A stretch of DNA of 64,000 nt from Escherichia coli. Its GTDB lineage: Bacteria; Pseudomonadota; Gammaproteobacteria; Enterobacterales; Enterobacteriaceae. The notes below the pieces were generated by a model. The model saw only the letters and a program-made list of their open reading frames with translations. It did not search any database and was not told where the DNA came from. Position numbers and translations under genes: made by a program. Numbering within the stretch: the stretch's first letter is position 1; every line of letters begins with the position of its first letter. This document shows positions 59,876 to 61,803 of this stretch, piece by piece. The stretch is taken from assembly GCF_002854065.1 (NCBI RefSeq), contig NZ_CP024147.1; one strand, 5' to 3'.

Positions 59876-61303
59876 TTATTTCGTGTTTTTCGACGACGGT
59901 AATTCAATGCGGAAACAAACGTCTTGCCCGCTCTCGTCGACCAGATACAGTTCCCCTTGCATACGGCGAATACAATCCCTGGCAATGCTTAATCCCAGAC
60001 CGCTGCCCTTCACCGCCCCTTTTCGCTGGTGGCTTCCCTGAAAAAAGGGTTCGAAGATCATGGCGCGTTCCTCTTGCGGAATGGGCGTGCCTGTATTGAT
60101 GACATCAATATAAACCCGCGCACCATGTAAACTGCTGCGAAGGCAAATGTTACCGGATTCAGCCCCGTAGTGCACCGCATTGGAGTAAAGATTATCCAGT
60201 ACGCTCATCAGCAGCATTGGCTCCGCCAGGCAAGCTGTTGCTTTGAGATCGACGTCGGTATGCATCATTTTAGCCCGTGCGGGCAGGCTATGAGCAGAAA
60301 CTACTGTCTCCACCAGCGGTGCTAACTCAACATTATCTAGTTCCACCGCACTGTCCGCCTGTTTACGGTTGTAATCAAGCAGTTGTTCGATCAGTTTTTG
60401 CAAATTGCGGCTGCTGCTATCAAGAATGCTCACCACCTCTTTTTGCTCTGGCGTAAGCGGCCCGACAACCTGATCAGCCAGTAATTCAGTGCCCTCGCGC
60501 ATACTCGCCAGTGGCGTTTTTAATTCATGAGATAAATGTCTTAAAAATTGATGGCGTTGGGATTCCAGCCATGACAGGCGCTCACTTAACCAAAGAATAC
60601 GTTGCCCAACCGAGCGTAACTCGCTCGGTCCACTGAACGAAACGCTATTGCCCAGAGAACGCCCTTCCCCCAACCGATTGATCATCCGTTCAATATTTTT
60701 CACCGGCCCGATAATCATCCGCGTGAAAAGCAGTACCATTACCAGACTCACCAGAAATAGCACCAGCGATTGCCAACCAAAATATTGCCCACGTTCGGCG
60801 ATTTCACGCTGAAGTTGCTGCCCACGAGAGAACACTACTGTGCGCGTGGCCTGTACCATTTCGGTATTGGCACTGGCAAAGGCTTCCAGACGCGCGGCAG
60901 CAGCAGCATCGGGACCACTGTTGTTGCACTGAAGTTGGGCCAGATTGTTCAAGTCCTGACGCAATGCCTGGTAAAGTTTATTGTCTGGCAGTACGCCTGC
61001 GTGGGCATCGAGCATTTCGCTGTAACGCTTGCGCTGGCTTTGATAAACCTTCGCAAGCGTAGGGTCATCCAGCACGCAATACTGACGGTAGCTACGCTCC
61101 ATCTCCAGCGCCGCGTTGGTCATTGCTTCGCTGCGCCGGGCATCGATAAGCGTGGTGCGGTTGACCAGCGCCGCCTGGTCGCTAAGCGCATTCAGGCTTT
61201 GCCAGGCTTGCCATGCCAGCACCAACAGGGGCAGCAGAATCAGCAAAAATGCCAGCATTACCAGTTGTCGTAATGAGCGGGGAAAAACGGGCCAGCGTTT
61301 CAA
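59876..61303 (-). CDS. glrK: Sensor histidine kinase GlrK (QseE)
   Basis: ORF track frame 59876-61366 would run through the glmY terminator; conserved N-terminus (M)KRWPVFPRSLRQLV begins at a TTG codon (61301-61303), giving 475 aa; HAMP region and HELKTP phospho-acceptor box. Confidence 0.85.
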   Translation of the reverse strand: MKRWPVFPRSLRQLVMLAFLLILLPLLVLAWQAWQSLNALSDQAALVNRTTLIDARRSEAMTNAALEMERSYRQYCVLDDPTLAKVYQSQRKRYSEMLDAHAGVLPDNKLYQALRQDLNNLAQLQCNNSGPDAAAAARLEAFASANTEMVQATRTVVFSRGQQLQREIAERGQYFGWQSLVLFLVSLVMVLLFTRMIIGPVKNIERMINRLGEGRSLGNSVSFSGPSELRSVGQRILWLSERLSWLESQRHQFLRHLSHELKTPLASMREGTELLADQVVGPLTPEQKEVVSILDSSSRNLQKLIEQLLDYNRKQADSAVELDNVELAPLVETVVSAHSLPARAKMMHTDVDLKATACLAEPMLLMSVLDNLYSNAVHYGAESGNICLRSSLHGARVYIDVINTGTPIPQEERAMIFEPFFQGSHQRKGAVKGSGLGLSIARDCIRRMQGELYLVDESGQDVCFRIELPSSKNTK

Positions 61304-61360
61304 GGTGTTACTCTCGTCAGACGCGAATAGCCTGATGCTAACCGAGGGGAAGTTCAGATA

Positions 61361-61545
61361 CAACAAAGCCGGGAATTACCCGGCTTTGTTATGGAATAAG
61401 GCGGTGCCTAACTCGACGTTTCGCCCGATGGTTGATATAGCTACGCTGATATCAGAAGTTGGACGGCAGGCACCTTGTTGTGCGTCATTCGAATTTTATG
61501 TAGCACGTCCCGAAGGGGCTGACATAAGTCGGTGAATGAGCCACT
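61361..61545 (-). ncRNA. glmY: Small RNA GlmY
   Basis: Minus-strand sequence AGTGGCTCATTCACCGACTTATGTCAGCCCCTTCGGGACGTGC...AAAGCCGGGTAATTCCCGGCTTTGTTG matches my recollection of GlmY (about 184 nt); terminator hairpin at 61365-61387 plus U-rich tail; sits 58 bp upstream of glrK. Confidence 0.85.
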
Positions 61546-61775: not shown

Positions 61776-61803
61776 CAAAAAAGCTCCCTGAGTTGGGAGC
61801 TTA
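61776..61803 (-). terminator. Rho-independent terminator of purL
   Basis: aagctccc-tgagtt-gggagctt preceded on the plus strand by aaaaa (T run on the minus strand). Confidence 0.75.

Follow-up and report, generated by a model that had tools for sequence, protein, structure and literature searches.

A TTG codon is the most likely translation start of the sensor kinase gene glrK (qseE) downstream of glmY in Escherichia coli

Background

At which codon does translation of glrK (qseE) begin? The question arises in the window (the whole stretch of E. coli DNA that was analysed, 64,000 nucleotides long), where the genes follow each other in the order purL - glmY - glrK - qseG - glrR, with purL upstream and qseG and glrR downstream. 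On the minus strand, which is the glrK/qseE strand, the mechanically called ORF spans 61366..59876(-) and contains 496 codons. A codon-by-codon listing of this frame, together with the annotated coding sequence, gives the following starts and boundaries:

61366-61364 (-): TTG, codon 1 of the mechanical ORF, in the 3' arm of the GlmY terminator hairpin
61363-61361 (-): TTG, codon 2 of the mechanical ORF, also in the 3' arm of the hairpin
61304..61366 (-): the 21-codon "extension" of the mechanical ORF, read here as non-coding (end of the glmY terminator, qseE promoter and 25-nt 5' UTR)
61303-61301 (-): TTG, codon 22 of the mechanical ORF, the most likely glrK/qseE start codon; the RefSeq CDS starts map here
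61258-61256 (-): ATG, codon 37 of the mechanical ORF (hereafter ATG37) and Met16 of GlrK, 15 codons past the TTG; rival start that yields the 460-aa form "ORF_f460"
59876..61303 (-): glrK/qseE CDS, 475 aa plus a TAA stop; extent as in the RefSeq CDS of two E. coli loci (L002 and L003), length as in K-12 b2556

The TTG at 61303-61301 is immediately followed by KRWPVFPRSLRQLV. These positions are read straight from the letters, and chance plays no part in them. Two plus-strand mechanical ORFs (61116..61535 and 61213..61335), antisense to glmY and glrK, were discarded as being without any support.

Annotation of the glrK start in databases

The start of the RefSeq qseE/glrK CDS was mapped to window position 61303 in 4/4 annotated E. 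coli records inspected, among them that of K-12 MG1655 b2556 (NP_417051.2, 2689671..2691098, 475 aa). Three of the four records give a protein of 475 aa and one strain has 474 aa, with one alanine fewer. The K-12 gene (b2556) lies at the same locus as that of the window and has the same gene order, start codon position and upstream 30 nt, and the window GlrK differs at 3/475 residues from the K-12-type sequence of strain 8FA (L002; coordinates match MG1655). The window belongs to another E. coli strain, and none of the differences from K-12 affects the start codon. In strain CUWW06 the 601 queried bases are 100% identical to the window and GlrK is one alanine shorter. This 601-nt junction matches 5425/5426 complete E. 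coli genomes at ≥95% identity, and a qseE annotation was found at the junction in all cases among the matches listed.

An exact-sequence look-up revealed three N-terminal versions of the protein in public collections, with 460, 475 and 496 aa. The 475-aa form corresponds to UniProt GLRK_ECOLI and to a RefSeq MULTISPECIES protein. The 460-aa form, which starts at ATG37, is widespread in automatic gene calls (at least 1000 contigs) and appears as "ORF_f460 [K-12 MG1655]" and as "Sensor histidine kinase GlrK"; this counts in favour of ATG37, whereas in the curated databases it has given way to 475 aa. NP_417051 stands at version ".2", which would fit a revision from ORF_f460. The 496-aa form is the "putative sensor-like histidine kinase YfhK" of some GenBank records (22 contigs). 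The longest-ORF rule leads to 496 aa and the choice of the first in-frame ATG after the TTG leads to 460 aa, which is a warning about databases, since both versions are most likely wrong.

Neither glrK, qseE, b2556 nor yfhK is listed in the TRAINSPOTTER N-terminomics supplements, and a literature search on glrK or qseE together with TTG returned nothing relevant.

The glmY-glrK junction

The region upstream of the TTG was analysed for transcription signals, and the following features were placed on it:

61398..61545 (-): Rfam-covered 148-nt portion of the glmY sRNA (RF00128 GlmY_tke1, 147.1 bits versus a gathering score of 33, E = 5e-34, full model 1-163)
61362..61390 (-): GlmY intrinsic terminator hairpin, with a 12-bp stem (arms 61390-61379 and 61373-61362) and a 5-nt loop (61378-61374)
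61358..61363 (-): TTGTAT, putative -35 hexamer of the qseEGF sigma-70 promoter, placed by means of the TSS cited in PMC6075780; it shares 2 nt with the end of the terminator stem
61335..61340 (-): TAGCAT, putative -10 hexamer of the same promoter, located 6 nt before the putative TSS and separated from the -35 hexamer by a 17-nt spacer
61328 (-): A, putative start of qseE transcription, 25 nt before the TTG, placed from the same cited TSS

The terminator hairpin comes right after the Rfam GlmY match and has a predicted dG of -23.4 kcal/mol (RNA fold). Full-length GlmY, which is 184 nt long, would end at about 61362. Across Escherichia and Citrobacter the stems are kept and the loop varies, and both TTGTAT and TAGCAT are invariant in 19 aligned sequences from Escherichia, Citrobacter and Intestinirhabdus. 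A consensus terminator scan did not call the glmY terminator, owing to its interrupted T run, and a consensus promoter scan did not call the qseEGF promoter. The glmY terminator and the qseE promoter are real yet non-consensus.

[quoted passage not shown] The residue numbers used in that paper "according to EcoCyc" (F19, L21, I22, L23 and L24 in TM1, S58 and H259) match only the 475-aa form, and its fusion end at -480 equals -238 of glmY, the standard fragment end of that laboratory. Since the numbering follows the 475-aa form, the cited TSS would correspond to A61328. The window has TTGTAT, the 17-nt spacer, TAGCAT, the 6-nt gap and an A exactly where the published junction leads one to expect them. 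The TSS and the missing read-through are taken from the literature, and the present analysis itself established the coordinates, how the start is annotated, its conservation pattern and the fit to the published numbering.

An mRNA with its 5' end at 61328, as the cited TSS indicates, would begin 38 nt downstream of the first codon of the long ORF. Such a TSS, together with the virtual lack of glmY read-through, would remove the 21-codon extension from the message. Between 61327 and 61304 the frame reads TTC GCG TCT GAC GAG AGT AAC ACC, with no ATG, GTG or TTG, so that, going by the TSS given in the literature, no in-frame start codon precedes the TTG at 61303-61301 on the mRNA.

These data bear directly on the longest version of the protein. 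Initiation at the TTG 61366-61364 (or 61363-61361) would require glmY read-through transcripts; it would produce a protein of 496 (or 495) aa and yield peptides from MLYLNFPSVSIR... In E. coli and Citrobacter the frame does stay open over the 21 upstream codons, and the YfhK records carry this version. However, both TTG codons precede the cited TSS at 61328, and read-through from glmY is reported to be virtually absent. Both codons are also buried in the 3' arm of the -23.4 kcal/mol hairpin (61373-61362), in agreement with the sequence-only reading, which had warned that the longer ORF would open inside the GlmY terminator. Besides, an in-frame stop is present ≤21 codons upstream of the TTG at 61303-61301 in 51/97 of the species loci described below. 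The chance that the 496-aa start is the one used can be regarded as negligible.

The arrangement found in E. coli is not universal, since in Proteus mirabilis glmY has no terminator and glmY-qseEGF forms one operon without an intergenic promoter (PMC8745638).

Conservation of the TTG codon

For the comparison between species, a GlmY-derived pattern was scanned against one genome per species, which gave 120 loci, and GlrK was located just downstream by tblastn with the 475-aa protein in 101 junctions. Besides the window and three loci from RefSeq E. coli records, these comprise 97 species loci, to which the counts given out of 97 refer; the counts do not represent independent events because the species are phylogenetically related.

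The tblastn alignments begin at query residue 1 in all but two loci, both from Mangrovibacter, and the motif FPRSLRQLV is nearly invariant across about 100 enterobacterial loci. The codon aligned to the proposed start is TTG in 90/97 loci, GTG in 4/97 and CTG in 1/97. In the remaining two, those of Mangrovibacter, the aligned codon is TTA or CTA and an ATG stands directly in front of it. ATG never occupies the TTG-aligned position itself in the 97 loci. In 24/97 loci an in-frame stop lies upstream with no other possible start between it and the aligned codon, and in several Enterobacter, Lelliottia and Kluyvera this stop is as near as 4-5 codons upstream.

Column entropies calculated by codon position were 0.39/0.20/1.04 downstream of the TTG versus 1.22/1.34/1.16 upstream of it, and 0.26/0/0 for the start-aligned codon itself. 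The three-base periodicity therefore sets in at the TTG, and the 21-codon extension shows none. The two invariant leucines encoded a few codons downstream use 4-6 different codons each. That the TTG is held while these leucine codons vary is the pattern of a start codon, not of a leucine codon.

In comparisons of E. coli with Citrobacter and other Escherichia, the amino-acid identity of the extension is about the same as its nucleotide identity, whereas in the coding region amino-acid identity is clearly higher. The conserved blocks of this stretch fall on the terminator stem, the -35 and -10 hexamers and the GAGAG element, which explains their conservation and counts against the 496-aa version. 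Judged by its pattern of substitution, the 21-codon extension is evolving like non-coding DNA.

The comparison also bears on ATG37. Were translation to start there, the product would be the 460-aa protein of the original ORF_f460 call and KRWPVFPRSLRQLV would belong to the untranslated leader. ATG is the most efficient start codon, which is a point for ATG37, and an ATG is present at +15/+16 in 78/97 species. However, in the other 19/97 loci the methionine is replaced by Thr, Val, Ile or Leu, and the next ATG, located at +38 to +60, would delete TM1 if it served as the start. In addition, the 15 codons in front of ATG37 show coding periodicity, with near-invariant first and second codon positions. 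For these reasons, and for those derived from the protein and from the ribosome binding site below, initiation solely at ATG37 has a very slim chance of being correct.

The use of both the TTG and ATG37, giving isoforms of 475 and 460 aa, would agree with the retention of ATG37 in 78/97 species, and a retapamulin profiling preprint reports that E. coli has internal starts. Nevertheless, Met16 is located at the start of TM1, so that the conservation of the ATG is explained by the protein sequence; no SD-like element precedes ATG37, and the ATG is missing in 19 species. A dual start is accordingly improbable, with a slim chance at best.

The orthologue alignment thus bears out what the sequence-only reading had proposed: the conserved GlrK N-terminus begins at Leu22 of the long ORF, that is, at the TTG, both in the codon table and in the tblastn alignments, and it is kept from the TTG onward. 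The next in-frame ATG lies 15 codons further in, as had been indicated, and the residues that it would remove are conserved in about 100 enterobacterial loci. Annotation, published residue numbering, cited TSS and comparative data agree on the TTG as the most likely start of glrK. This start is already known, being that of the current curated annotation (RefSeq, UniProt and the laboratory studying the gene), and nothing new is added to it in this respect.

The N-terminus of GlrK

GlrK has the architecture of a sensor histidine kinase, with a predicted TM1, a periplasmic domain, TM2, HAMP, HisKA and HATPase_c. A Pfam search with the 496-aa ORF located HAMP at residues 213-265 (25.1 bits versus a cut-off of 25), HisKA at 271-337 and HATPase_c at 383-491. 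In NCBIfam no QseE/GlrK-specific model matched, and the library seems to lack one; the best models (CreC, CpxA and others) scored far below their cut-offs.

The Kyte-Doolittle hydropathy profile has a peak at residues 13-32, which would correspond to TM1. The GlrK N-terminus, MKRWPVFPRSLR, carries four positive charges before TM1, with K2, R3, R9 and R12 ahead of the peak. Positive charges in this position agree with the positive-inside rule. They fit an N-terminus that stays in the cytoplasm ahead of the periplasmic domain reported in PMC6075780, from which TM2 and the GlrK/QseE topology were also taken. A protein initiated at ATG37 would lose all four of the N-terminal positive charges that flank TM1.

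Shine-Dalgarno sequences of the candidate starts

Upstream of the TTG one candidate ribosome binding element was identified:

61311..61315 (-): weak Shine-Dalgarno-like GAGAG, 7 nt upstream of the TTG; duplex with the 16S 3' end of -3.4 kcal/mol

The GAGA block at -12 to -9 is kept in most loci. The duplex energy itself lies within the background range, since 43% of random 20-nt windows score -3.0 kcal/mol or better. ATG37 has the weakest anti-SD duplex of the four candidates (-2.8 kcal/mol, with zero spacing), which speaks against it. Nonetheless, SD strength was rejected as a discriminator, because all four candidate starts are weak (-2.8 to -3.9 kcal/mol) and within the background range.

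Proposed initiation of glrK translation and its consequences

Taking these results together, glrK (qseE) is very probably translated from the TTG at 61303-61301(-), where ribosomes would initiate the synthesis of a 475-aa sensor kinase, MKRWPVFPRSLRQLV... According to this model, and to the TSS given in the literature, the mRNA would begin at A61328 from a weak sigma-70 promoter situated right behind the glmY terminator and slightly overlapping it. Its 25-nt 5' UTR would carry the weak SD-like GAGAG and translation would begin at the near-cognate TTG. The upstream 21 codons would then represent the 3' arm of the terminator, the promoter and the leader, all of them non-coding.

TTG is a near-cognate start codon that is read by fMet-tRNA and is usually tied to lower translation efficiency. 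Reportedly, about 3% of E. coli genes start at TTG. In glrK the TTG pairs with low expression of the kinase; what sets it apart is that it is held as TTG or GTG across about 100 Enterobacterales species. QseE was too scarce to be detected in a global proteomics study, as mentioned in PMC6075780. A weak promoter, a weak SD and a weak start codon would fit this very low abundance of the kinase, and the low copy number may bear on the QseE/QseG/QseF stoichiometry. Apart from this, the correct start settles how residues are numbered, how tagged or deletion constructs are designed and where terminator, promoter and CDS meet, which amounts to little beyond annotation hygiene.

Upstream ATG codons in other lineages

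An in-frame ATG was observed three codons upstream of the TTG in 34/97 loci, as in gagATGatttcgTTG, which encodes M-I-S-L-K-R-W. These loci belong to Yersiniaceae, Pectobacteriaceae and some Enterobacteriaceae; among the genera represented are Yersinia, Serratia, Pectobacterium, Dickeya, Brenneria, Cedecea and Buttiauxella. Examples from Yersinia, Pectobacterium and Cedecea were examined, and in these an AGGU is located 5-7 nt ahead of the upstream ATG. An extended SD, GAGAUGAU, was considered for the TTG of the species with an upstream ATG and was rejected, because it was unsupported by the duplex calculation and the better-spaced AGGU would serve the ATG. At the place homologous to the upstream ATG, E. 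coli, Citrobacter and Enterobacter read gagAGT.

From its sequence context, the upstream ATG is probably the start in the lineages that carry it three codons upstream, and the E. coli clade, which appears to have lost this ATG, would depend on the TTG. Even so, 33/34 of the loci with an upstream ATG retain the TTG; in the 63 loci without one, the start-aligned codon is TTG in 57/63 and GTG in 4, the other 2 being those of Mangrovibacter. The preservation of the TTG beside an upstream ATG may reflect a dual start in those lineages or some other constraint at the nucleotide level. One tentative explanation, possible though on balance doubtful, is that the weak TTG is a selected and ancient feature of the GlmY/GlrK module, which would either cap the abundance of the kinase or act as a second start in the upstream-ATG lineages, the ATG having been lost (ATG to AGT) in the E. 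coli clade. Within the M-I-S group, the third codon positions are the sole variation between the upstream ATG and the TTG.

Start site of GlrK

The K-12 GlrK (QseE) protein is present in public databases with three different N-terminal versions, all of them encoded within positions 59876-61366 of the minus strand, and automatic gene calls are divided between the ATG and the TTG starts.

N-terminal versions of the K-12 protein in public databases
460 aa: labelled 'ORF_f460', on at least 1000 contigs
475 aa: the form in UniProt and RefSeq, on at least 1000 contigs
496 aa: labelled 'YfhK', on 22 contigs

The codons preceding the conserved TTG were compared with those of other enterobacterial glmY-glrK junctions.

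61304-61315, minus strand: region compared with loci L117, L098, L024, L040 and others

An in-frame ATG was found three codons 5' of the conserved TTG (gagATGatttcgTTG) in 34 of the 97 species loci, in the genera Yersinia, Serratia, Pectobacterium, Dickeya, Brenneria, Cedecea and Buttiauxella, whereas E. coli, Citrobacter and Enterobacter have gagAGT at the homologous site. In the examples of Yersinia, Pectobacterium and Cedecea that were inspected, an AGGU motif was located 5-7 nt ahead of the upstream ATG. This looks like a three-codon shift of the start site, although the TTG was retained as TTG in 33 of these 34 loci.

Farther into the protein, the periplasmic domain contains a five-alanine run (GPDAAAAARLE; about 60893-60907, minus strand). 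This run is one residue shorter in strain CUWW06 (L001, positions 1280-2704), giving a protein of 474 aa, and the 601-nt glmY-glrK junction of this strain is 100% identical to that of the window. The difference is a 3-nt length polymorphism in a repeat of GCN codons.

Putative qseE promoter and hairpins around glmY

61335-61363, minus strand: hexamers TTGTAT and TAGCAT of the putative qseE promoter
61781-61802, minus strand: terminator-like hairpin, AAGCTCCC...GGGAGCTT, followed by TTTTTG

No variation was observed in the hexamers of the putative qseE promoter among 19 Escherichia, Citrobacter and Intestinirhabdus sequences. The last bases of the glmY terminator stem fall within the putative -35, and the consensus scan made no call for either this promoter or this terminator. 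In the terminator region aligned with 61362-61390, the stem is altered on both arms in Intestinirhabdus alba (L100) with respect to E. coli, changes that look compensatory when aligned, and the bases of the loop vary freely among Citrobacter. The hairpin at 61781-61802 separates purL from the sequence upstream of glmY and is presumably the purL terminator.

Second matches to the GlmY-derived pattern

Two matches each to a 17-base pattern derived from GlmY were observed in Serratia and Brenneria genomes (L021/L022, L054/L055, L074/L075, L081/L082, L097/L098 and L087/L088), with glrK adjoining only one member of each pair. The other member may be a glmZ that is more GlmY-like in these two genera. 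Unrelated phyla also gave a few matches (among them Microbacterium and Planctomycetota), which look like chance occurrences.
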